This document shows positions 10,401 to 60,529 of a stretch of DNA of 64,000 nt, one piece after another. The position numbers and the translations under genes are program-made. The notes under the pieces were generated by a model. The model searched no databases. It was given only the letters and a program-made list of their open reading frames with translations, and was not told the DNA's origin. Source of the stretch: Candidatus Woesearchaeota archaeon (GTDB lineage Archaea; Nanobdellota; Nanobdellia; Pacearchaeales; GW2011-AR1); NCBI GenBank assembly GCA_964372205.1, contig CAYJQB010000001.1, forward strand, positions 226,967 through 290,966, in the 5' to 3' direction. Position 1 is the first letter of the stretch. Every line of letters starts with the position of its first letter.

Positions 10401-11656
10401 CCAATATCCAATTGTACTCTTCTAAACCTGTCATCCATCCATGAAAAACTTTCAGAAGAATAACCTGTTGGAGGCTCAAGACTTAACAGAATATCTTTAT
10501 TAATTTCTAATGTAGAGTACATTGGCTTGGCATTTCCAAAGAAAGGAGGTCTGAACACTGTAAGTCCTGCATTTGCGGGAACGCTCTCAAGAACAGTAAG
10601 CACAGCAGCAGTTTGCAAACAAGGTCTACAACCAGAGTCATTCAACGGCTCTAAAGATATTGTTTTAATGATTGAATCTCCAGGTTGTGCAGTATATGGA
10701 AGCACAGGAACAAGAGAGCTGTTGTAAAGAGGACCTGCTCTTGAGTCAAATGGTTGTTCTTTAGTGGTCTTGTAATTAACAGTCCATCCATGATGGCTTC
10801 CGTCATAGTCAGGAGTCATACTTGTGATGGTTACAGGCCCCACAACCCAATAATCACCATTCGCGAACTGTCCATATTCTACATCTTCAGAAAAAGTCCA
10901 AGTTATTCCATACTGCGATAAACTAGAATTATAATCTCCTTCAGGATTGTATTCGTCATTGTCGCTAGTATCATCACATCCTGAATCTTCCAAATCAATA
11001 AGTCCATCACCATCATCATCAACACCATTAGAACAAGCAGGAGAGCTTCCTCCACCTCCTCCCCCACCGCCACCTCCTCCTCCGCCTCCTCCATTCCCAC
11101 GAGTTCCATCATCCCCATCTCCACCTTCATCTAACTGACAATTTATAGGAGAGACAGCAGAACAATACCCAAAAGATTCAGAACCAGCAGATATCTGAAC
11201 ATAATCAACACTCGACACTTCATCTCTAGAAAAGCTGAACTCTTTACTTCCAGGAGATAAATCAACCTTTCTCACAAACGGAAGAAATGCAAGCCAGTCA
11301 ACAGTCTTTTGCACAAGAATCCCAAGAGGAGAGAAATAAACATCTTCAGAAATACTATCATCAAGATTTTCAGTTGGATCTCCAAAAACAAAGTTTATTG
11401 AATCAACATTATCAAGATTTCCCTCAACAGTAACTTTAACCTCATCATTATCATATAAACAAGAAATAGGTTTTACAGAAGCTTCACTACAAAACTGTTC
11501 CAAAGATTGTGTTGTTCCATCTGCTCCTGAAGAAGTAGAATTTCCATCACTAATCAACTGAGGAAGAAACACAAGAAGTATTCCAACTGTAACAACAATT
11601 ATAGCAAGAACTAGATAATGCACAGGCTGTAATGTAAACCACCCTCTTTTAAACAT
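7445..11656 (-). CDS. giant secreted/surface protein (1403 aa) with signal anchor, 16-Gly tract, Cys-rich module and right-handed parallel beta-helix (pectate-lyase-fold) repeats
   Basis: Continuous 1403-aa ORF; first ~230 aa nearly identical to the neighbouring gene; Cys-rich CAPVMGYCVGG...CNGG block; repeated NNxIxxxxxxGI / IENNYIHD beta-helix repeats; conserved C-terminal ~40 aa shared with the paralogue. Confidence 0.85.
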   Translation of the reverse strand: MFKRGWFTLQPVHYLVLAIIVVTVGILLVFLPQLISDGNSTSSGADGTTQSLEQFCSEASVKPISCLYDNDEVKVTVEGNLDNVDSINFVFGDPTENLDDSISEDVYFSPLGILVQKTVDWLAFLPFVRKVDLSPGSKEFSFSRDEVSSVDYVQISAGSESFGYCSAVSPINCQLDEGGDGDDGTRGNGGGGGGGGGGGGGGGSSPACSNGVDDDGDGLIDLEDSGCDDTSDNDEYNPEGDYNSSLSQYGITWTFSEDVEYGQFANGDYWVVGPVTITSMTPDYDGSHHGWTVNYKTTKEQPFDSRAGPLYNSSLVPVLPYTAQPGDSIIKTISLEPLNDSGCRPCLQTAAVLTVLESVPANAGLTVFRPPFFGNAKPMYSTLEINKDILLSLEPPTGYSSESFSWMDDRFRRVQLDIGSYPGEQVRPYDNYNRSGSYRGYGGRVAIDNGDAALRFMLNDTYEDKFPQLVHYMQMGIDLYHIMDNGGVWYPNGGHGSGRKTPIIFTALLFNNQTWKDDVMNAPKMTFQEDGFLTFYPQANSGVGTVLFGEGTSWYWRALATDSASRTLSDPYGYIDGGVVPGTSYQKGINSLIWKGSVLINQLLPEAKNVWNNQLFEDYVNRWVNLGAWAQPDICAPVMGYCVGGSNNGNVCTYANVNACPNGYCAGGQCNGGDYNGQLCGVDHGPSPNDDCGGVRCENLIPEFYKVTYGENPNNLSSCIMDSDPSDGIGRFPYRHGQDNNTGGAGYISGFAEAMWNKYRINPPECRDFEDNDGDGLIDYGLDLECLSSDDNTENSTDEEATYYVSTSGNDGNPGTISQPWKTLQHAADVIQPRDTVLVREGVYDEIGYHYDARDEDISVWFNNEGLPGQPITFKAYPGEKPVVSGFSSLPGWQLCASQAECQDNPNWQNVYYVNKSNLPPIEEVVLFEESTLLSVAQDPTPVDKLYFNKPDGWYSPSEITQTSITDAAVFTHPDSNYWVGSYLIIHSGNNNIFYREILTYDPNLHIVTFESLDTSLEQDKDTYSLWNHPSIMDEPGEFYVDYDMSRIYLWPLSSVNNIQEFGKNIAFELNGKNNIIIDGFTIEGYVGTPIVNRDKGSNSDIQNIEIRNNELRHIKGFSIGILLADNLLIENNYIHDTLIGRGISIGGRNSSVQGTGFLVRSNEITRVGRTGIYFAFAKDGIISDNYIHDSAGQHGNSISTYQNSQDILVENNTVINATDMTVSESERITFRYNHGNVGISGWNSSYEGRSPNGITIERNSLVGSIGFGDNFQNVVVKNNIFGGGAVGPNYDRHHNLFVTDHWQQRTYNLSNYFESQELDMSLVFIDEANGDYHLTESSPIGEPPVDPCSMADDGGYVGAYPCLGGGGLPVGDLNYSPEEESNGWAKLIDNFKKILGFSIEEI
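11023..11656. repeat. ~640-bp direct repeat, copy 2 (5' end of giant gene 2)
   Basis: See copy 1. Confidence 0.8.
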
Positions 11657-12164: not shown

Positions 12165-12349
12165 AATTAATAAAAGAAAATAGAGTATAAAAACCTAATA
12201 GATTAGAAAAAGTATCTTCCATCAGCACCCGACATACATATCAGGAGCCAAGTTGTTTTTAATGTCTTCCTAGCTCCTGTCCATATTCCTTAGAATTTAT
12301 ATTTGTTATAGGTAATTAAAAACTAAAAAATAAAAAATATTTTGTGAGT

Positions 12350-19344: not shown

Positions 19345-19647
19345 ATGGTAGCAAAAAACTTGCAAAGAATCTTAGGTGGAGCAATTTTAGCAGGAACTCT
19401 GCTTGGAAACGCATCGTGTAGCAATAGGTATATGTCAATTCATGATAGAAAAGACGAAACAATAATCAATTATCAAGGAAAACAATTGGTAGTGGTAGAC
19501 ACCGATTTAGGACCTCTAGTAGAGGGATATCTCAAAAGCGTGAGAGCTGATGGAGAGAGAAGAGCAATAATCGTTGAACCTCTTACAGCAGAAGAGAACA
19601 AAGAGATAAGAGATTATCTAAAGGCAAATCGTTTAGCAGGATTCTAG
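19345..19647 (+). CDS. hypothetical secreted/lipoprotein-like protein
   Basis: Signal-like N-terminus ending in GNASCS; 100 aa. Confidence 0.35.
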   Translation: MVAKNLQRILGGAILAGTLLGNASCSNRYMSIHDRKDETIINYQGKQLVVVDTDLGPLVEGYLKSVRADGERRAIIVEPLTAEENKEIRDYLKANRLAGF

Positions 19648-19868
19648 TCAACAAATAACTGAATGTCGTAGCCTTTCTCAATTACATACTTCTTTATTCT
19701 ACGGAAACTTACATTGTCAGGTCTTCCTCTACCAGATTCATAATTTTTTATACTACTCAAACCGACACCAATAATTCTTGCAAATTCATCTTGAGTTAAG
19801 CCTTCTAATTTTCTAATCTGTTTTGTCACATCCGAATTAAATCTTCTTTTCAAGTAATCACTCCACAA
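19644..19868 (-). CDS. XRE-family (Cro/C1-type) HTH regulator
   Basis: LTQDEFARIIGVGLSSIKNYESG helix-turn-helix signature. Confidence 0.6.
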   Translation of the reverse strand: MWSDYLKRRFNSDVTKQIRKLEGLTQDEFARIIGVGLSSIKNYESGRGRPDNVSFRRIKKYVIEKGYDIQLFVD

Positions 19869-19945
19869 ATAACTGGGCTCACATACTTTGTCCGAAATTT
19901 AAATATATGGAAATATTTATAAACTATGAGTATTCATGACTAATC

Positions 19946-20188
19946 ATGGATACAACAACAATAACTATAGACTTGAGAGTTAAGAAGATGCTTGATAGTT
20001 TGAAGCGTGCTAGAAGAGAGTCTTATAATGATGTTCTTAGTAGAGTTCTCCCAAGTGCATCAACTGATGATGTAGAGTCATTACAAGAGACTGCTGCGAT
20101 ACTGTCAGATTCTGATACAATGGCGAGGCTAGCAAAAAGTATGGGCGATTTTAAACATGGCCGTTTAATAGATTTTAAAGATGTGTAA
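19946..20188 (+). CDS. ribbon-helix-helix antitoxin (CopG/ParD-like)
   Basis: TITIDLRVKKMLDSLKRARRESYNDVLSRVL beta-strand plus two-helix RHH pattern; stop adjoins the RelE start. Confidence 0.5.
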   Translation: MDTTTITIDLRVKKMLDSLKRARRESYNDVLSRVLPSASTDDVESLQETAAILSDSDTMARLAKSMGDFKHGRLIDFKDV

Positions 20189-20446
20189 ATGGACAAACAA
20201 ATCAAGTTCACTCTAGAAAGCAAAGAAGCACTACACTCTTTACATATAGATATTCAAAAATCGGTAAAGTTTGCATTGAAGAAACTTGCCAACGGAGAGA
20301 TTCAGGGAAAACCTCTTACTGAAAGCCTCACAGGATTTAGCAGTCTTAGAGTCGGGAACCATAGAGTAATTTACAGCGTTGAAAAAGATGTGATTATTGT
20401 TTTTGATGTCGGACATCGTAAGAATATTTACAATAAAAAATTGTAA
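20189..20446 (+). CDS. relE: RelE/ParE family toxin
   Basis: LRVGNHRVIYSVEKDVIIVFDVGHRKNIY matches the RelE C-terminal consensus (RVG.YRIIY...I..I.HRK..Y). Confidence 0.75.
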   Translation: MDKQIKFTLESKEALHSLHIDIQKSVKFALKKLANGEIQGKPLTESLTGFSSLRVGNHRVIYSVEKDVIIVFDVGHRKNIYNKKL

Positions 20447-20462
20447 TGGCCCCGAGGGGATT
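20447..20462. repeat. 16-nt direct duplicate of the tRNA-Lys 3' end (att-like scar)
   Basis: tggccccgaggggatt identical to 20531-20546 (3' acceptor plus start of T-stem of tRNA-Lys). Confidence 0.6.
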
Positions 20463-20530
20463 CCTGAAGCTTCGTGAGAAGCGAGGGCTAGCGATTTCAA
20501 TCGCTCTGTGTTCAAATCCCTGAATATAAA

Positions 20531-20674
20531 TGGCCCCGAGGGGATTTGAACCCCCGACACCTGGATTTCTCCTTTCTGGCAATCTTAGTTTCTTTGATTT
20601 CCAGGGAAACTTTCTTTTCTAAAGAAAGTAAGCCTTAAGAGTCCAGTGCTCTAACCAGGCTGAGCTACGAGGCC
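20531..20674 (-). tRNA. tRNA-Lys (anticodon CTT) with 69-nt intron at canonical 37/38 position
   Basis: Hand-folded cloverleaf: acceptor GGCCTCG/CGGGGCC, D-stem GCTC/GAGC, anticodon stem CTGGA/TCCAG with loop CTCTTAA, T-arm GGGGG-TTCAAAT-CCCCT, discriminator A; anticodon 3' strand displaced by a 69-nt insert; BRE/TATA (tttaaaaa) ~28 nt upstream. Confidence 0.8.
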
Positions 20675-33585: not shown

Positions 33586-33700
33586 ATGCAAAAGTGTATT
33601 ACGCCCGGACCAAACACAGCACACTTTTGCATAATCACTGGGACTCGTATTGATTAGCTTATTTCTTTCTAGTGGCTAGGATTTTTAAGCATTCTCGAGA
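33586..33700. repeat. intergenic repeat copy A: 12-bp perfect hairpin enclosing a 14-nt copy of the tRNA-Ser 3' end, plus motif2 (gggactcgtattgattagctt) and motif3 (ggatttttaagcattctcgaga)
   Basis: atgcaaaagtgt / acacttttgcat inverted repeat; ttacgcccggacca identical to 38774-38787; motifs shared with copies B and C. Confidence 0.7.
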
Positions 33701-33768
33701 TGGAAGTGATATGTGATTATTTCACCTCAATCGGAAGATTTATATATAAGTAAGATATTCTTACCGGT

Positions 33769-34281: not shown

Positions 34282-34293
34282 TAACTAATCCGT

Positions 34294-34352
34294 GGGACTC
34301 TGATCGATTAGCTTCTTTTCTCTGATCTCTAGAATTTTTAAGGATTGTCGAC
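34294..34352. repeat. intergenic repeat copy B (motif2 plus motif3 only)
   Basis: gggactctgatcgattagctt ... gaatttttaaggattgtcgac, about 75% identical to the corresponding part of copy A. Confidence 0.6.
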
Positions 34353-35041: not shown

Positions 35042-35151
35042 TTACGCCCAGACCAAACCGAACCCTATCATGCGATATTTTAGGGACGGTTTTATGTACA
35101 AGTTATATACAAGATTTGCTAGACTTTTAGGATTTTTAAGGATTGTCGAGA
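35042..35151. repeat. intergenic repeat copy C: degenerate copy of tRNA-Ser 3' end (ttacgcccagacca, one mismatch) plus motif3 ggatttttaaggattgtcgaga
   Basis: Aligned by eye with copy A and with the tRNA-Ser 3' end. Confidence 0.65.
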
Positions 35152-35164
35152 TAGAATTGATGGA

Positions 35165-35923
35165 TTAAATATACCCTTTCCATTCTTCCTCACAAGGAAT
35201 TTCAAATTTCTCAAACGGGGCCTTAGTCTTCAATGGGAAGAATAAAGACTGGTTTATGTATGCTCTTGAATCCAAATGTGCTAGCAAATTTGCTATAAAG
35301 TAAGCGAAACTTAGATTTGGGATCTCATATCCTTTAAGTGAAAATGGTTTATGTTCCCACCAAACATGCAGAAATTTTTCATCTCCTAAGGCGATGTTGC
35401 TAACTTTTTTAAAAATTGAACAATCAGTTATGTTAAAATAATCTTTTAAAGAGTCTCGAATTGTATTGATAGTGAGAAAGCATTCATAACAAAACAAGCC
35501 ATTGAATATTTTATCATTTTGTGCAACAGTTTCTATTTTTTTGCCATTTTGTTCGCATTTCTTAATAGTTTCTTTGAGATCTGAACCATTCCTAATTGAG
35601 GTCTTAACTTCGATTATAGCTCTGACTATATTCGCAGGAACAATTACAAAATCTCCTTCTGAGAATAAAACAGGTGAACGATCATCGTAGATTATTAGAT
35701 CTATTTGGTTGGTTAATTCTTTTTTTGGATTTATTACAAATCCTGTTCCAATTGAGAGATTTTTTGGCAAAAATCGAGAGATAACATTCTTTAATACAGC
35801 CTCTTTATATCTCCCATCTTCTCCCCAGTGAGCCTCTCCTATCAGACTCCTTACTCTATCCTTAACAGCAATTAATTCTTTGTTTATTGATTCATAAAAA
35901 TTTTTGAAATCTTGTTCTACCAT
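35165..35923 (-). CDS. predicted PD-(D/E)xK-fold nuclease-like protein
   Basis: QIDLIIYDD ... FVIVPANIVRAIIEVKTS gives the D...(D/E)xK arrangement with flanking hydrophobic strands; 252 aa; 7-nt overlap with upstream gene. Confidence 0.45.
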   Translation of the reverse strand: MVEQDFKNFYESINKELIAVKDRVRSLIGEAHWGEDGRYKEAVLKNVISRFLPKNLSIGTGFVINPKKELTNQIDLIIYDDRSPVLFSEGDFVIVPANIVRAIIEVKTSIRNGSDLKETIKKCEQNGKKIETVAQNDKIFNGLFCYECFLTINTIRDSLKDYFNITDCSIFKKVSNIALGDEKFLHVWWEHKPFSLKGYEIPNLSFAYFIANLLAHLDSRAYINQSLFFPLKTKAPFEKFEIPCEEEWKGYI

Positions 35924-36940: not shown

Positions 36941-38617
36941 CTAATTTTCTTGATAAATATTTTCAAAAGAATTGTTTGGATTTCTTCTCACCAAACGAAT
37001 ATAATCTGCTTTTATTTTTCTGGACATATTCTGAACAAATTGAGAATTTTTAAAGATGTTTTTATAGTCCAAAAAACCATCATTTTGTTCAATATATTCT
37101 TCAAAGTCGATATTTATATCTGGAGTAATTAGCTCCCAAACCTTCTTAATAGTTGCAACAAATTTGGCTTTGTTTGTTGTTATACACTCTAAAGGATCAT
37201 CAATAATTTGCTTTCCAAGGTTGTCTTCTCTCAATATCTCTGCTAATACGTGCGAGAAGAAAAAGATGGAAAGCCCGTAGTCTCTTAAATGTTCATTATT
37301 TAACAAACCTGCTTCGTTTTTAACAAGGTCATATACGACCTTCCCAAGATATATTTTATTCGCAGAGATATTTCTTGAGAAAATATGATTATATTCTTCT
37401 CCAAATAATTTTTGTTTAAGATGGGTATTATGGGGTTTACCTAAATAGAAGGCCATAATTACCTGAGCAGCAAAATCTTTTTCAATTATCTCAGCTTCCG
37501 AGTTCAATTCCTCTCCTCGCTTCCTTCTGTAAAGAATATTTCCTTCAAATGTACGTTCAAACTCAGTCTGAATGGTTTTTTGCACAGAATCGTTTGATTT
37601 TAAATCCTTCAAACTTATGGAGTTTTGATTGTTAGTATAGAAAGTTATTTTCTTTACAAGAGGAGAAGTAGGGTTCAATTTTATTATTTTAACAAGGATA
37701 AAAAGATTATTGCTCAATGAATCTCTATTTTCAAAAAATGTTAACATTGATTGACATCCGTTGATTAAGGAATATCCTCCAAGAGTAATTTTGTGATTTG
37801 TTAGGTCCTCAGAGAAGTCTCTACAAATTATTGTAATGCCATTATGATACATAAAAAAATTGTTATGTTCTGAAGTATCCAAGATAGTTTTTTTGATGGC
37901 TTTGTTTACCCTGGTATTCCCAACACCATATCTTACATTTTTATAAAAAAGAGTCCTATCTTGAATACCTTCAAGTTTGACTAACTCCTTTGCTTTAATT
38001 GCATAGGTCCTAACAAGAGTACCATCAGGGAGGTTATATTCTATTTTTGAGGGATTTTGGATTGAAAGGTCTTTTTGAGGGAAGTTTGTTTCTTGGTCTG
38101 CAAAATAAGTATACTTGTCAAATAAAATATTAGAGTCATAACCCTCAAAATCAGTTATTGTGTTTATATAATCTTTCGCAGGAGAATTAAATATTTTGTT
38201 TGTAGTAAAAATTAGAACTTTTTTGTAATGAGTCTTTTCAGACAAGTTATTTCTTTCTACAAGAGATTTTAGCTCTCTATTTGCATCACTGTTGAGTAGA
38301 TTATTTATAGAATCACTACCTTCAAACCAGATCCTTGTTCCAACAAAATTTCTTATGTCTCTATCTCCTTGATCTTGGTTGTTGTTAGGGCTGAATTTTG
38401 ATTGAAATAAGTAAATTGTTTCTTCATCATCATCTACATATAATCCATCAATTCCTTTATCATTTCTATGATCGCACACACTATCTATTGCTTCTAAAGG
38501 ATCAAGCCTAAAAAAATTTTCAAGAAACCATATCAAAAATGCAGAAGACTCTTCTCTACCCGAACTATATTCAGAGACCTCATCCCTCATCCGATTATAG
38601 AATTCAGATTGATTCAT
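36941..38617 (-). CDS. AIPR-family abortive-infection-like protein
   Basis: 558 aa; N-terminal FLIWFLENFFRLDPLEAIDSVCDHRNDKGIDGLYVDDDEETIYLFQSKFS resembles the Mrr-like DG-IDG...Q-K N-terminal nuclease module of AIPR proteins. Confidence 0.55.
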   Translation of the reverse strand: MNQSEFYNRMRDEVSEYSSGREESSAFLIWFLENFFRLDPLEAIDSVCDHRNDKGIDGLYVDDDEETIYLFQSKFSPNNNQDQGDRDIRNFVGTRIWFEGSDSINNLLNSDANRELKSLVERNNLSEKTHYKKVLIFTTNKIFNSPAKDYINTITDFEGYDSNILFDKYTYFADQETNFPQKDLSIQNPSKIEYNLPDGTLVRTYAIKAKELVKLEGIQDRTLFYKNVRYGVGNTRVNKAIKKTILDTSEHNNFFMYHNGITIICRDFSEDLTNHKITLGGYSLINGCQSMLTFFENRDSLSNNLFILVKIIKLNPTSPLVKKITFYTNNQNSISLKDLKSNDSVQKTIQTEFERTFEGNILYRRKRGEELNSEAEIIEKDFAAQVIMAFYLGKPHNTHLKQKLFGEEYNHIFSRNISANKIYLGKVVYDLVKNEAGLLNNEHLRDYGLSIFFFSHVLAEILREDNLGKQIIDDPLECITTNKAKFVATIKKVWELITPDINIDFEEYIEQNDGFLDYKNIFKNSQFVQNMSRKIKADYIRLVRRNPNNSFENIYQEN

Positions 38618-38776: not shown

Positions 38777-38861
38777 CGCCCGGACCAGGATTTGAACCTG
38801 GGAATCGCTTGCGCGAAACGGGATTAGCAATCCCGCGCAGTAACCGCTGTGCCATCCGGGC
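38777..38861 (-). tRNA. tRNA-Ser (anticodon GCT), long variable arm
   Basis: Hand-folded: acceptor GCCCGGA/TCCGGGC, anticodon stem CGGGA/TCCCG with loop TTGCTAA, long variable arm, T-arm CCAGG-TTCAAAT-CCTGG, discriminator G. Confidence 0.85.
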
Positions 38862-41351: not shown

Positions 41352-41756
41352 TCACCCGTTTAATGCTTCATTCACAAGTTCGTCAGCTCTCTGCTGGAAT
41401 TTATCCCATCTACTAACATGCTTGTAGATTATCTTTTCAAAATTATTTTCTAACTTCTTCGCTATAAGGTTTAGTGGAACAAGCTGACTTGCTCTCACTT
41501 GATACTCTCCATTCATCTGTTTCACAACAAGCTCCGAATCCATTATCACAATTACTTCTTTTTTTGTAAACCTGATTGCATTTTCTAAAGCCTTTATCAA
41601 AGAGTTATACTCCGCAACATTATTAGTAGTCACTCCTATTTTCTCTCTGAATTCAAAAAGAATTTTATCTTCATCTCTTATTACAAATCCAATAGCCGCT
41701 TTCCCAGGATTTCCTCTGCTTCCCCCATCGCAGTTTATTGTAATTTTATCATGCAT
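41352..41756 (-). CDS. rnhA: ribonuclease HI (RNase H type 1)
   Basis: CDGGSRGNPG...NNVAEYNSLIKAL...DSELVVKQMNGEY catalytic D-E-D architecture. Confidence 0.7.
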   Translation of the reverse strand: MHDKITINCDGGSRGNPGKAAIGFVIRDEDKILFEFREKIGVTTNNVAEYNSLIKALENAIRFTKKEVIVIMDSELVVKQMNGEYQVRASQLVPLNLIAKKLENNFEKIIYKHVSRWDKFQQRADELVNEALNG

Positions 41757-42805: not shown

Positions 42806-43489
42806 ATGTACATAATAGGGGTGGACGATGCCGGAAGAGGTCCTTTAATTGGTCCAATGGTTTTAGCAGGGGTTTTGATAAAAACAGCAGACCAGGATTT
42901 CTTGAAAGAATCAGGAGTAAAAGACTCCAAAATGCTCACTCAGGAAAAACGTCTTGCTCTCGATGAATTAATCAAATCAAAATCCCTTGGATATAAAGCA
43001 GTTCTAGTTCCTCCAATCGAAATCGATGATGCAGTTCTCTCAGGAAGAAACTTAAACAATCTGGAAGCAATAAAATGTGCTGAAGTAATAGACTCCTTGA
43101 ATACAGAAGACATGCATGATAAAGAGATAAAGGTTATTGTAGACTGTCCATCTCCAAACACAAAAGCTTGGCAAGCTGTTCTCATCTCACATATAAAATA
43201 TTCTAAAAATCTAAAGATAAAATGTGAGCATAAAGCAGATGCGAATCATCCGTGTGTTTCAGCAGCATCTGTTTTGGCAAAATTAGCAAGAGAAGAAGCT
43301 GTAGCAGAAATCAAATCTCAATATGGGAATATAGGTTCAGGTTATCTAACAGACCCAGTAACTCAAGCATTCATAAAAGAAAAAAGCGCAGAACTTGAAA
43401 ACTCAGGCATATTCAGAAAATCATGGTCTACTTGGACTAATCTTGTCGCAGAAAAACAACAGAAGAAACTATTCGGGATATTCTTCTAG
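42806..43489 (+). CDS. rnhB: ribonuclease HII
   Basis: IIGVDDAGRGPLIGPMV N-terminal catalytic motif and DxxS...D region of RNase HII. Confidence 0.8.
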   Translation: MYIIGVDDAGRGPLIGPMVLAGVLIKTADQDFLKESGVKDSKMLTQEKRLALDELIKSKSLGYKAVLVPPIEIDDAVLSGRNLNNLEAIKCAEVIDSLNTEDMHDKEIKVIVDCPSPNTKAWQAVLISHIKYSKNLKIKCEHKADANHPCVSAASVLAKLAREEAVAEIKSQYGNIGSGYLTDPVTQAFIKEKSAELENSGIFRKSWSTWTNLVAEKQQKKLFGIFF

Positions 43490-44341
43490 TTTTTTCATCG
43501 CTAGCTTTATTGATTTGGAATTAGACGAAAATACTTTCCAAGGATTTTTCTCAAGATATCTTGAAATGCTTTTTATTGTATATTTATCAAATTTAAAATC
43601 TGGTTTAAGCTCATTCCAAGAGAGAGGCATTGCGATTGTTCCAGGCTCTTTTGCTCTTAATGAATAAGGCACGACTTTTAGTTGAGCTCTTGCGTTTCTC
43701 AAATAATCAATGAAAACTCTCCCTTTTCTCTTATTTATTCTCTGTTCTGTTGTGAACTTGTCAGGATTTATTTTTTCAATTATCTCAGCTATTCTTCTCG
43801 AAAACTTCTTTGTTTCATTAAACGTGACGTCTCTCTTTATAGGCACAATTATGTGAAAGCCCTTCTGACCGGTTGATAACAAATAACTCTTTAATTCTAG
43901 GGAGTCAAGAATCTTTTTTACTGCATTCGTTGCCTGAACTGCATCAGAAAGTTTTTTCTCATTCGGAGGATCAATGTCCCATACAACAACCTCCGGATAA
44001 TCAATTTTGTCAATCCTTGACAGCCAATGATGAAAAATCAGAGTATCTTGATTAGCAAGGTATACTAAAGTGTCTTTATCATTGCATACAACATATTCAG
44101 TTCCATTGATTTTCTTTGTTTTAATCCACTTAGGAAAATACCCCCCAGCATTTTTCTGATAGAAACACATTTTTCCAGCACCTTCAACACATCTCTCAAG
44201 AGCAATAGGTCTATCTTTCACATAAGGAAGAATTTTGTTTGAAACTTTAATGTAATAATTAATTACATCTTTTTTGGTTATCTTTGATTTAGGATAGATA
44301 ATCTTGTCAGGATGAGTGATTTCTACTTTTCCGATTTTCAT
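43469..44341 (-). CDS. LigD-type polymerase/primase (PrimPol) domain protein, stand-alone
   Basis: ITHPDKIIYP...ITKKDVINYY...DRPIALERC...FYQK motifs as in the NHEJ LigD Pol domain. Confidence 0.65.
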   Translation of the reverse strand: MKIGKVEITHPDKIIYPKSKITKKDVINYYIKVSNKILPYVKDRPIALERCVEGAGKMCFYQKNAGGYFPKWIKTKKINGTEYVVCNDKDTLVYLANQDTLIFHHWLSRIDKIDYPEVVVWDIDPPNEKKLSDAVQATNAVKKILDSLELKSYLLSTGQKGFHIIVPIKRDVTFNETKKFSRRIAEIIEKINPDKFTTEQRINKRKGRVFIDYLRNARAQLKVVPYSLRAKEPGTIAMPLSWNELKPDFKFDKYTIKSISRYLEKNPWKVFSSNSKSIKLAMKKLEEYPE

Positions 44342-59629: not shown

Positions 59630-60529
59630 TTAAAGATTACTATGGGCTTGAGGGGGAATAAAGTGCTTCCTCCTCCCTTTTCCATTTTTGATATTCCAGT
59701 ACTTTCTGAACTCGCAAAGTGCCCCCTCGATATTAGTTATAGAAAGATATGGATAATTTGAAAATGCTTTCTCATACGCAATGCTTTCCCATTTTTCTGA
59801 AAGAGAATCTTTTTGCATCTCATATAGCTCATACAGCCTATGCTTAACTTCTTTATTGCTTAATTTCTTTCCATAGATTATTTCTAATCCCCACTTTGCT
59901 CCAGGCCCAACGTTCACAAAGTCGTTATCATTCCAGCCCTGCCTAAAGAATCCTAAGTAAGTCAAATCCGTCCATATTTCACACGCAAGGAACGGACCAA
60001 CCATCGGAATTCTTTTTAATATCTCGAAAGACTCTTCAGGAGTGCTACTTTGGTCTATTCTTTTTATTATTTCACTAGAATTGTTGGAAAGAATTTTCAA
60101 ATTGTTTAGGACACTAACATGTTTATCTTCACCTTTTTTCCCTGAAATAATGTAAGCATTGTTGAACAAAGGTTTACCCAATTTTTTCATCCTATCGAAC
60201 TTTTTTAGGATTTCAGCTTTAACTCCATCGTCAAACTTCTTAAACGGCTCTATCTCCAATTCCTCATACAATCCGTGTCTGTTAAAAAATCTGTAAAATA
60301 CAACATTGAGAAGAATTGATTTCCTGTCACTCAATTTGTTTAGTTTTTTCAATAAATAAATGGTGCACTTGTCAAGCTCCCTATACATATTGATTACTTT
60401 ATATTTCTGTAGAATTTTATCCTCAGTCCAAGGGGAACGTTCTTTTAGAACAAATCTCTTATGCCAAATTAAATGTCTTCTGTAAATGAAATCAAAAAAC
60501 TCTTGTTTTAAATTTTCTCGCACAGGCAT
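59630..60529 (-). CDS. 299-aa protein resembling the alpha-glutamyl/putrescinyl thymine pyrophosphorylase (aGPT-Pplase) / DNA base hypermodification family; assignment tentative
   Basis: N-terminal FFDFIYRRHLIWHKRF...PWTEDKILQKYKVINMYRELDKCT resembles the conserved FxxERHxI...PWTxDxIL..Y.F.NVYRExD block of that family (from memory); start codon overlaps the nusA stop. Confidence 0.4.
   Translation of the reverse strand: MPVRENLKQEFFDFIYRRHLIWHKRFVLKERSPWTEDKILQKYKVINMYRELDKCTIYLLKKLNKLSDRKSILLNVVFYRFFNRHGLYEELEIEPFKKFDDGVKAEILKKFDRMKKLGKPLFNNAYIISGKKGEDKHVSVLNNLKILSNNSSEIIKRIDQSSTPEESFEILKRIPMVGPFLACEIWTDLTYLGFFRQGWNDNDFVNVGPGAKWGLEIIYGKKLSNKEVKHRLYELYEMQKDSLSEKWESIAYEKAFSNYPYLSITNIEGALCEFRKYWNIKNGKGRRKHFIPPQAHSNL

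Follow-up and report, generated by a model that had tools for sequence, protein, structure and literature searches.

A second copy of the tRNA-Lys 3′ end and a short gene-less unit beside it in a Candidatus Woesearchaeota archaeon

The tRNA-Lys(CTT) gene and the second copy of its 3′ end

The stretch of DNA analysed here, referred to throughout as the window, comprises 64,000 nucleotides of a Candidatus Woesearchaeota archaeon (assembly GCA_964372205.1, contig CAYJQB010000001.1, positions 226,967 to 290,966). It carries an intron-containing gene for tRNA-Lys(CTT), a second copy of the last 16 nt of this gene 84 nt further on and, directly beyond the second copy, genes for a RelE-type toxin, a VapB-type antitoxin and an XRE-family regulator. 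The 16-nt repeat is best explained as having arisen by duplication at the boundaries of a miniature insertion without genes at the tRNA-Lys 3′ end, and similar units were identified at several tRNA species in other DPANN archaea.

The tRNA-Lys(CTT) gene lies on the minus strand at 20531..20674, where it was recognized with Rfam model RF00005 (53 bits, E 1.5e-8), by ARAGORN run with its intron search (-i) and by its cloverleaf fold. It consists of exon 1 (20674-20636), a 69-nt intron (20635-20567) and exon 2 (20566-20531), with no CCA encoded at its 3′ end. ARAGORN places the intron after the anticodon loop, and this call and the position of the Rfam insertion concur on the canonical 37/38 site, as the first-pass annotation of this DNA had it. 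The same annotation expected a bulge-helix-bulge (BHB) motif, and here the agreement is partial. The fold has the anticodon stem, a 3-nt AAA bulge containing the 3′ splice site and a helix of 4-5 bp, CUCU(U)/(A)GGAG, while the 5′ splice site falls in a multiloop instead of the canonical 3-nt bulge, so that the motif is predicted to be of a relaxed type and not canonical hBHBh′. The 3′ bulge and central helix are conserved and the intron end, AAGAG-NN/A (the stroke marking the end of the intron), is common to related intron-bearing tRNA-Lys genes. It is worth mentioning that ARAGORN in its default mode (bacterial, intron-free) makes no call for the tRNA at 20531-20674, which is found by the intron-aware run or Rfam only; routine annotation of such genomes will therefore overlook both this intron-bearing tRNA and its repeat.

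The last 16 nt of the gene, tRNA positions 58-73, read AATCCCCTCGGGGCCA in the tRNA sense, the reverse complement of which on the forward strand is TGGCCCCGAGGGGATT. Even with a tolerance of 3 mismatches, the window contains exactly two copies of this 16-mer (20447-20462 and 20531-20546), and two such matches were obtained in 0/100 dinucleotide shuffles. The earlier claim that the tRNA end is repeated 84 nt downstream, abutting the relE stop, was confirmed exactly, and the tRNA predictors place the duplicated 16-mer inside the tRNA. With flanking bases included, the repeat extends to 18 nt (AATGGCCCCGAGGGGATT), giving on the minus strand a proximal copy at 20529..20546, which is made up of positions 58-73 and 2 flank bases, and a distal copy at 20445..20462, a displaced or duplicated tRNA 3′ end whose 16-mer begins at the base after the relE stop codon TAA (20444-20446).

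Between the two 16-mers lie 68 nt of palindrome-rich, non-coding DNA, of which the 66 nt between the 18-nt repeats constitute the spacer of the unit (20463..20528, minus strand, ending ...GCTTCAGG in the tRNA sense). Read in that sense, the spacer starts with a T-rich linker, TTTATATTCA, followed by GGGATTTGAAC (20510..20520, minus strand), which is the exact reverse complement of tRNA positions 53-63 (GTTCAAATCCC, 20541..20551, minus strand), the source arm of this inverted repeat having been located by a repeat search. The two arms are 11 nt long, 100% complementary and 20 nt apart. Next come hairpin 1 (AGCGAT TTCA ATCGCT, 20490..20505), which has a counterpart of different sequence at the equal position in the DPANN loci L019 and L127 described below, and hairpin 2 (GCTTC GTGA GAAGC, 20469..20482), which is conserved in L019, L052 and L127; the sequence then closes with TTCAGG. 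The spacer has a GC content of 46%, compared to ~36% locally. Its ends, TTTATATTCAGG... and ...GAAGCTTCAGG, are not inverted repeats of each other, the sole inverted repeat being that of the spacer with the T-loop of the tRNA.

A number of other identities for these sequences were considered and rejected. A second tRNA or tRNA half in the spacer, on either strand, was ruled out by manual reading and by a permissive search with the Rfam covariance models, in which the tRNA alone scored and all remaining matches had E>1, far under the gathering thresholds. For a C/D-box or H/ACA small RNA in the intron or spacer, no boxes were apparent on reading and none are conserved in L019. A T-loop intron, or a split tRNA with the distal copy as 3′ exon, was rejected on sequence and fold, as BHB geometry is absent at the junctions; the 57/58 junction sits within a continuous 11-bp helix formed with the inverted repeat, and CAGG, the four bases preceding the distal copy, is unable to pair with TTCA. 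A retroviral-type primer-binding site was discarded as the copy is without the complement of CCA, and the spacer sequences do not fit integron attC-like core motifs, the terminal repeats of classical MITEs (miniature transposable elements with inverted repeats) or P-nucleotide-type palindromes.

Contigs of the same species from several metagenomes are identical across the region. Five independent contigs among them end inside the unit, in the interval that separates the inverted repeat from hairpin 1 (one at 20505, three at 20510 and one at 20517), and three contigs span it. These ends may reflect population heterogeneity in the unit core, an idea prompted by L052, in which sub-repeats start at the equivalent point.

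Similar units and syntenic loci in DPANN archaea

Species-representative genomes were searched with the tRNA 3′ end, which yielded 81 DPANN tRNA-Lys loci. An exact duplicate of the 16-mer was present 50-290 nt downstream in 11 of them, in some cases as arrays of 2-4 units, and a twelfth locus, L032, has its exact duplicate 4.1 kb away. Identity of the distal copies with the tRNA always sets in within the T-loop, 0-7 nt ahead of A58. The retrieved loci also contained 35 bystander tRNAs other than tRNA-Lys, and three of these have their own positions 58-73 duplicated, with a period of 80-86 nt, these being tRNA-Gly(GCC) in L127 and tRNA-Pro in L101 and L093. The hosts of the units are tRNA-Lys(CTT), tRNA-Lys(TTT), tRNA-Gly and tRNA-Pro genes, with the unit downstream, and in all four tRNA species the core duplication is of positions 58-73 of the resident tRNA.

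The spacers resemble one another also. At the beginning of the spacer, 11 of 16 units have resident tRNA positions 53-63 in inverted form, matching at 9-11 of the 11 positions, and this inverted copy tracks tRNA-specific differences, reading GGGAATTGAAC for tRNA-Gly (with an A-to-T change) and CGGATTTGAAC and AGGATTCGCAC for tRNA-Pro. In a consensus fold the resident-matched inverted copy shows up as compensatory change. The tRNA-Gly unit of L127 and the tRNA-Lys units of the window, L019 and L052 have in common a core of ~50 nt (84% mean column identity) with the pattern ACTGCACGAA..TTCGCTGG.CTT.GCTTC..GAAGCTTCAGG, within which hairpin 1 keeps its position and changes its sequence (window vs L019 vs L127). 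Counted outside tRNA genes, GGATTTGAAC has 13 occurrences immediately behind tRNA-Lys ends and very few at other places in 875 kb. The unit architecture is present in >15 independent loci, the repeat-bounded segments being gene-less and 50-185 nt long, and many genomes have short units without any toxin-antitoxin (TA) module.

Tandem copies are a feature of several loci. L056 has two and L119 four identical 89-nt units in flanks that are otherwise 100% identical; in this pair, a metagenome-assembled genome (MAG) and a metagenome contig, either the copy number is polymorphic or the assembly has collapsed a tandem array. L052 has internal sub-repeats of 57 nt, and partial extra units lie past the last copy in L019, L050 and L084. 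In L033, a native-looking hairpin, like the flank after the distal copy of L032, was observed between the tRNA and the unit, in the first 130 nt. A different conserved element of ~55 nt (..CTCCGCAGTGAG..CCGAGC..GTCGAACAAGAGAG..) lies in the ~60 nt directly behind tRNA-Lys in L051, L064, L086, L069 and L058, with no tRNA-end duplicate.

Viral contigs gave 0 matches to the spacer and to both gapped patterns, and a viral or plasmid attP as source was rejected. Of the 10 plain 16-mer matches in viral contigs, 7 are a sequence whose translation is a P-loop (Walker A) motif, 1 is a tRNA-like 3′ end and 2 are in GC-rich contigs.

The same locus was compared in L001 (GCA_053534795.1), a close relative which is syntenic on both sides with ~88% nucleotide identity. 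By BLAST, the tRNA 3′ end (window 20529) is the exact point at which homology is lost, and it picks up again at 19665; window positions 19666-20444 are missing from L001, which has different cargo between the tRNA and its own distal copy. A 1.6-kb cassette with a TrmB regulator and ORFs of 104 and 74 aa without family matches comes after the L001 tRNA, at the site that the unit occupies in the window. This cassette has 30-nt imperfect terminal inverted repeats (10747-10776 / 12297-12326), which sit directly within a 13-nt tRNA-end direct repeat, and it ends at a second, degenerate copy of the tRNA end, CCTCGGGGCCATT (L001 12331-12343). Past its distal copy L001 continues with CCGTTATTTATGGACTAG, and the matching flank of the window, CAGTTATTTGTTGACTAG, comes only after the TA and XRE genes; from this matching order it follows that the distal copy of the window is orthologous to that of L001. 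As a global alignment of L001 with a hypothetical window lacking the cassette gave no information, the comparison of the junctions was made by eye.

In more distant loci the order TFS, tRNA-Lys, winged helix-turn-helix (wHTH, 88-93 aa) and metallophosphoesterase is kept. No tRNA 3′-end duplicate is present in L083 and L044, where the distance from tRNA to wHTH gene is only ~65-75 nt, while L079 has 81 extra nt before the wHTH gene, made up of a 65-nt spacer and the 16-mer. The units are thus discrete, variable in presence among relatives and able to amplify in tandem; their direct and inverted repeats follow the resident tRNA, and one core family occurs at different tRNAs.

A 100-aa ORF of the window with no assigned family (19345..19647, plus strand) is found in L001 too and not in the more distant syntenic loci, which suggests that the region was filled in layers; judged by its sequence distribution, this ORF is probably an older layer of the variable region. 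The stretch from the tRNA to the wHTH and metallophosphoesterase genes is a hot spot that gathers cassettes layer by layer. Searches of NCBIfam and PADLOC with the L001 cargo and the 100-aa ORF gave no matches. Other genes noticed at the hot spot are a DNA methyltransferase-like gene inserted in L086 and, in L056 and L119, a gene whose product looks Toprim-like by eye.

The twelfth locus differs in its cargo. The repeats of L032 (Woesearchaeota) flank, as TTCAAATCCCCTCGGGGCCAT, a 4.1-kb element with a tyrosine integrase (PF00589, 2.9e-9) encoded right after the tRNA, and bona fide integrase elements therefore use the tRNA-Lys core. No homologues of this integrase were found near the other loci by tblastn.

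The adjacent cassette and the origin of the unit

The genes beyond the distal copy in the window form an XRE/antitoxin/toxin cassette of 779 bp (19666..20444), defined by the BLAST breakpoints and junction sequences with L001, from which it is absent. The toxin gene (20189..20446, plus strand, 85 aa) encodes a RelE/ParE-family protein with a match to PF05016 (5e-9) of 37 bits against a cut-off of 23, in support of the first-pass RelE assignment, although the score to TIGR02385 (RelE_StbE) is 26.7 bits, just below the cut-off of 27.9. The antitoxin gene (19946..20188, plus strand, 80 aa) has its stop contiguous with the toxin ATG at 20189. This product had been called a ribbon-helix-helix (RHH) antitoxin, which the profiles did not support, the matching one being PF02697 (VapB-type putative antitoxin) and no RHH Pfam family. 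The XRE-family (Cro/C1-type) helix-turn-helix gene (19644..19868, minus strand) encodes 74 aa from a TTG start or 69 aa from an ATG at 19853, and was rightly recognized at the outset (HTH_3, 1.4e-9). The last 7 codons and stop of its frame lie in flank common with L001, and a homologue search made to test for truncation of the gene returned none at E<=1e-5 but itself. A 14-nt direct repeat, TCAACAAATAACTG / TCCACAAATAACTG (13/14 match, of borderline significance), brackets the gene at 19648-19661 and 19862-19875, the first copy being native flank present in L001. The XRE gene may represent an insertion separate from the TA pair.

The cassette lies outside the repeat pair and is flanked by AATG at 19662-19665 and 20445-20448, its far junction having this 4-nt match only, without a tRNA fragment. 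The comparison with L001 is read more simply as an insertion of the cassette into the lineage of the window, an alternative possibility being a microhomology-mediated deletion in L001 at AATG. Since many genomes have short units without a TA module, the repeat and the TA pair appear to be two separate events, and the RelE/VapB/XRE genes would be a cassette of their own, added later (or kept) right beyond the distal copy.

Homologues of this RelE (63-79% identity) are rare and four homologue loci were examined. In L126 a convergent tRNA-Ser has its 3′ end 33 nt from the relE stop, in L129 a tRNA-Ser-like 3′ fragment is 12 nt away from the stop, in L127 tRNA-Gly and tRNA-Val lie on either side of the TA pair, and in L128 there is no tRNA nearby; the antitoxin-toxin pair seen in the window is also present in L126-L128. 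Three of the five contexts (window, L126, L129) therefore have relE abutting tRNA 3′-end sequences, and from these positions the TA family tends, it seems, to favour the edge of variable DNA beside tRNA-end repeats, which would fit an island-stabilising module.

Elsewhere in the window, the 3′ end of a tRNA-Ser gene, TGGTCCGGGCGTAA, occurs three times on the tRNA strand, at 33602-33615, ~35045-35058 (one mismatch) and 38777-38790. They delimit two segments in tandem, which have ends of related sequence (33632-33710, 34286-34351, 35128-35161) and defence-type cargo, namely AIPR (36941-38617) and DUF6602 (35165-35923), with no integrase among the scanned ORFs. Integrase-less, repeat-bounded accretion at tRNA genes is thus apparently a habit of this genome. 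The window also encodes a protein with the helical domain of 5-hmdU DNA kinase (59630-60529; PF18723, 2.4e-50), a family named for the thymidine-hypermodification (5-hmdU) DNA kinase, a LigD-type primase-polymerase (43469-44341) and an RNase H/RVT_3 protein (41352-41756).

We interpret the unit as the footprint of a site-specific, T-loop-anchored insertion of mobile DNA at a tRNA hot spot, and place the probability of this at about 0.6. The break or crossover would have taken place at ~position 57/58 in the T-loop, and duplication of positions 58-73 would regenerate the tRNA and keep the gene intact. The locus would then run from the tRNA (1-73) through the T-rich linker, the 11-nt inverted copy of 53-63, the two hairpins and the second 58-73 to the former native flank. 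The first-pass annotation had described the repeat as the likely scar or remnant of a tRNA-targeting element; its tRNA-targeting part is in keeping with the variable DNA of the hot spot and with the core used in L032, but the repeats bound only the 68-nt spacer and the neighbouring ORFs scanned include no integrase.

Two models for the insertion can be drawn up. In the first, an att core would be acted on by a tyrosine or serine recombinase, and this model is supported by the L032 element and by the Dehalococcoides ssrA islands discussed below. It leaves 84-bp elements unaccounted for, as well as one core that carries different tRNA tails. In the second, a staggered-cut integrase with a fixed 16-bp ruler would act at the tRNA TpsiC segment in the manner of a casposase, which by analogy would explain target-derived repeats. 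The difficulties of the second model are that neither Cas1 nor terminal inverted repeats were seen, that the repeat length varies in some loci and that L033 is a misfit. A more specific proposal, which we regard as rather doubtful, is of a so far unrecognised DPANN insertion system that docks on the T-loop, measures 16 bp to the gene end and inserts short palindrome-rich DNA. The product of such a system would be a tRNA ('leader')-repeat-spacer-repeat array mirroring casposon and CRISPR integration, with the inverted T-loop copy as a target-matching guide or second binding site. As the sequence of this copy changes with that of the resident tRNA at Lys, Gly and Pro genes, it would have been either taken from the target or corrected against it.

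Several points weigh against an insertion of mobile DNA. By Pfam, no integrase, recombinase or transposase is encoded in or beside the unit among 32 scanned window ORFs (10 neighbouring and 22 others), and 84 bp is too little for a circle to undergo ordinary att x att recombination. The units are without terminal inverted repeats of their own and are not classical MITEs or mini-casposons. Identity in the distal copies runs 1-36 nt beyond A73, unlike a model with a simple, fixed target-site duplication (TSD), and in L033 the unit lies downstream of apparent native flank, a layout at odds with simple TSD and att models alike. The boundaries of the insertion in L079 were taken from gene positions, the filled and unfilled intergenic flanks being too diverged for base-level alignment. 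No empty, excised or unit-free allele was seen among the contigs of the window's own species, all of which carry the TA cassette. Finally, all hairpins are perfect Watson-Crick, which favours a role at the level of DNA but is no proof of it.

An integrase-borne island inserted in tRNA-Lys, with RelE/VapB/XRE as its cargo and the 16-mer as its attR/attL scar, is unlikely. It would be in agreement with the integrase element on the same core in L032, the TA/XRE segment missing from L001, the RelE homologues beside tRNA-Ser 3′ ends or fragments in L126 and L129, and the window's tRNA-Ser gene with its two tandem islands bounded by three 3′-end copies. However, the copies enclose 68 nt only, with TA and XRE outside and just AATG at the far end, no integrase is found among the scanned nearby ORFs, and identical units elsewhere lack TA genes. 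In addition, the same core is found at another tRNA together with the repeat of that other tRNA, for which a carried attP gives no explanation.

Without any mobile element, replication errors at the palindromic T-arm (template switching and slippage) followed by unequal crossing-over could have produced a minisatellite. The two identical units in L056 versus four in L119, the 57-nt sub-repeats of L052 and the partial extra units of L019, L050 and L084 are what such a process would leave, as are inverted and direct repeats that are both copies of the resident tRNA. The recurrence of the left boundary at 57/58, the ~50-nt core common to different genomes and different tRNAs, and GC-richer hairpin spacers unlike the AT-rich flanks of the unit-free L083 and L044 speak against it, and we consider it quite improbable.

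The probability is similarly low that the unit is a functional RNA, whether a structured 3′ trailer, a tRNA-like small RNA processed by tRNase Z or the CCA-adding enzyme, or an alternative 3′ exon. Hairpin positions are kept under sequence change (window, L019, L127), a three-way fold has GGGATT/AATCCC as its closing stem, the 5′ strand of the T-stem is paired with the distal copy in the consensus fold, and the unit is always on the tRNA strand with a T-rich tract behind the distal copy. Nevertheless, there is no match to an Rfam family and, on manual checking, no BHB geometry for a T-loop intron. The ~60 base pairs of the hairpins include 0 G-U pairs, and the fold of the window unit has a z-score of only -1.4. 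The units are missing from most orthologous loci, including L001, and the proximal copy already completes the tRNA. A chance match of two 16-mers, for which there is nothing but the modest length of the repeat, is negligible in view of the 0/100 shuffles and of an architecture present in >15 independent loci.

Comparison with known systems

Insertion at tRNA 3′ ends is known as a general kind of event and the TA/XRE cassette is ordinary, but the family of miniature units appears to be undescribed; full-text literature searches returned no description of such units with a 58-73 duplication, an inverted T-loop copy, shared cores and arrays in DPANN archaea. Repeats of tRNA 3′ ends are usually read as the edges of kb-scale islands, whereas here they bound gene-less units of ~70-100 nt at several tRNA species across DPANN archaea, and the neighbouring TA module need not be part of the repeat-bounded element. 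The units may also account for the recurrent contig breaks beside tRNA genes in DPANN MAGs.

Duplication of a tRNA 3′ end by insertion of mobile DNA is textbook knowledge, and tRNA fragments can be left by the integration of mobile genetic elements (PMC9897764). The ssrA islands of Dehalococcoides have a 20-bp direct repeat, insertion midway in the T-loop, tandem arrays and integrase-less members (PMC3146451). Like such tRNA and tmRNA islands, the DPANN loci have a regenerated gene, tandem downstream repeats, some segments without an integrase, varying cargo and TA or defence genes. In contrast, the DPANN segment is of 50-185 nt, is gene-less and starts with an inverted copy of the resident T-loop, and its core is found at different tRNAs, each with its own tRNA repeat, which a carried attP does not predict. 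Of the features that define an integrase island, the window unit has the direct repeats of a tRNA, the regenerated tRNA and a presence that varies among related genomes (L001, L083, L044, L079), while a recombinase inside the segment is found in L032 and not in the window. In form, with a repeat on either side and without genes, the unit would fit a cis-mobilizable element (CIME), which keeps attL and attR but has lost its genes for integration and transfer. CIMEs are typically decayed and of kb scale, and the occurrence of the same core at a different tRNA argues against simple decay in the case of the units. CIMEs were defined in PMC5704250.

Introns, split tRNAs and the disruption of tRNA genes by mobile elements have been described in archaea (PMC3293823). 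The locus is like these in having an intron-bearing gene, a tRNA fragment nearby and mobile DNA implicated; it differs in that the fragment is of positions 58-73 only and lies immediately downstream, without a BHB or the leader complementarity for splicing. The TA pair resembles type II modules on islands in its small size, its contiguous antitoxin-then-toxin order and its position beside a tRNA-end repeat where variable DNA begins, which is also the case in L126 and L129. It differs in the predicted pairing of a PF02697 VapB-type antitoxin with a RelE-type toxin and in the divergent XRE gene, for which no relatives were detected.

Casposons are the other system to which the units can be compared. 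The casposase of A. boonei requires a TpsiC-loop segment and a 15-bp TSD at the tRNA-Pro 3′ end (PMC5137440), and casposons of M. mazei are found in tandem arrays (PMC4779613). No casposase, Cas1 or PolB genes turned up in the unit or in the scanned window ORFs and loci, among which no systematic search for them was made. The units are of ~70 nt compared to kilobases for casposons and have no terminal inverted repeats, and the A. boonei TSD overlaps the tRNA by 5 bp, while in the DPANN units all 16 bp are tRNA. What the units and casposons have in common is the target at a tRNA 3′ end, a TpsiC loop in the position of a 'leader', a duplication of ~14-16 bp that would be of fixed length, and arrays whose units share one duplicated segment in a leader-repeat-spacer-like layout. 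If a T-loop-anchored, ruler-type integrase does operate here, it would be a natural system near the proposed casposon-to-CRISPR transition, in hosts whose mobile DNA is barely charted.

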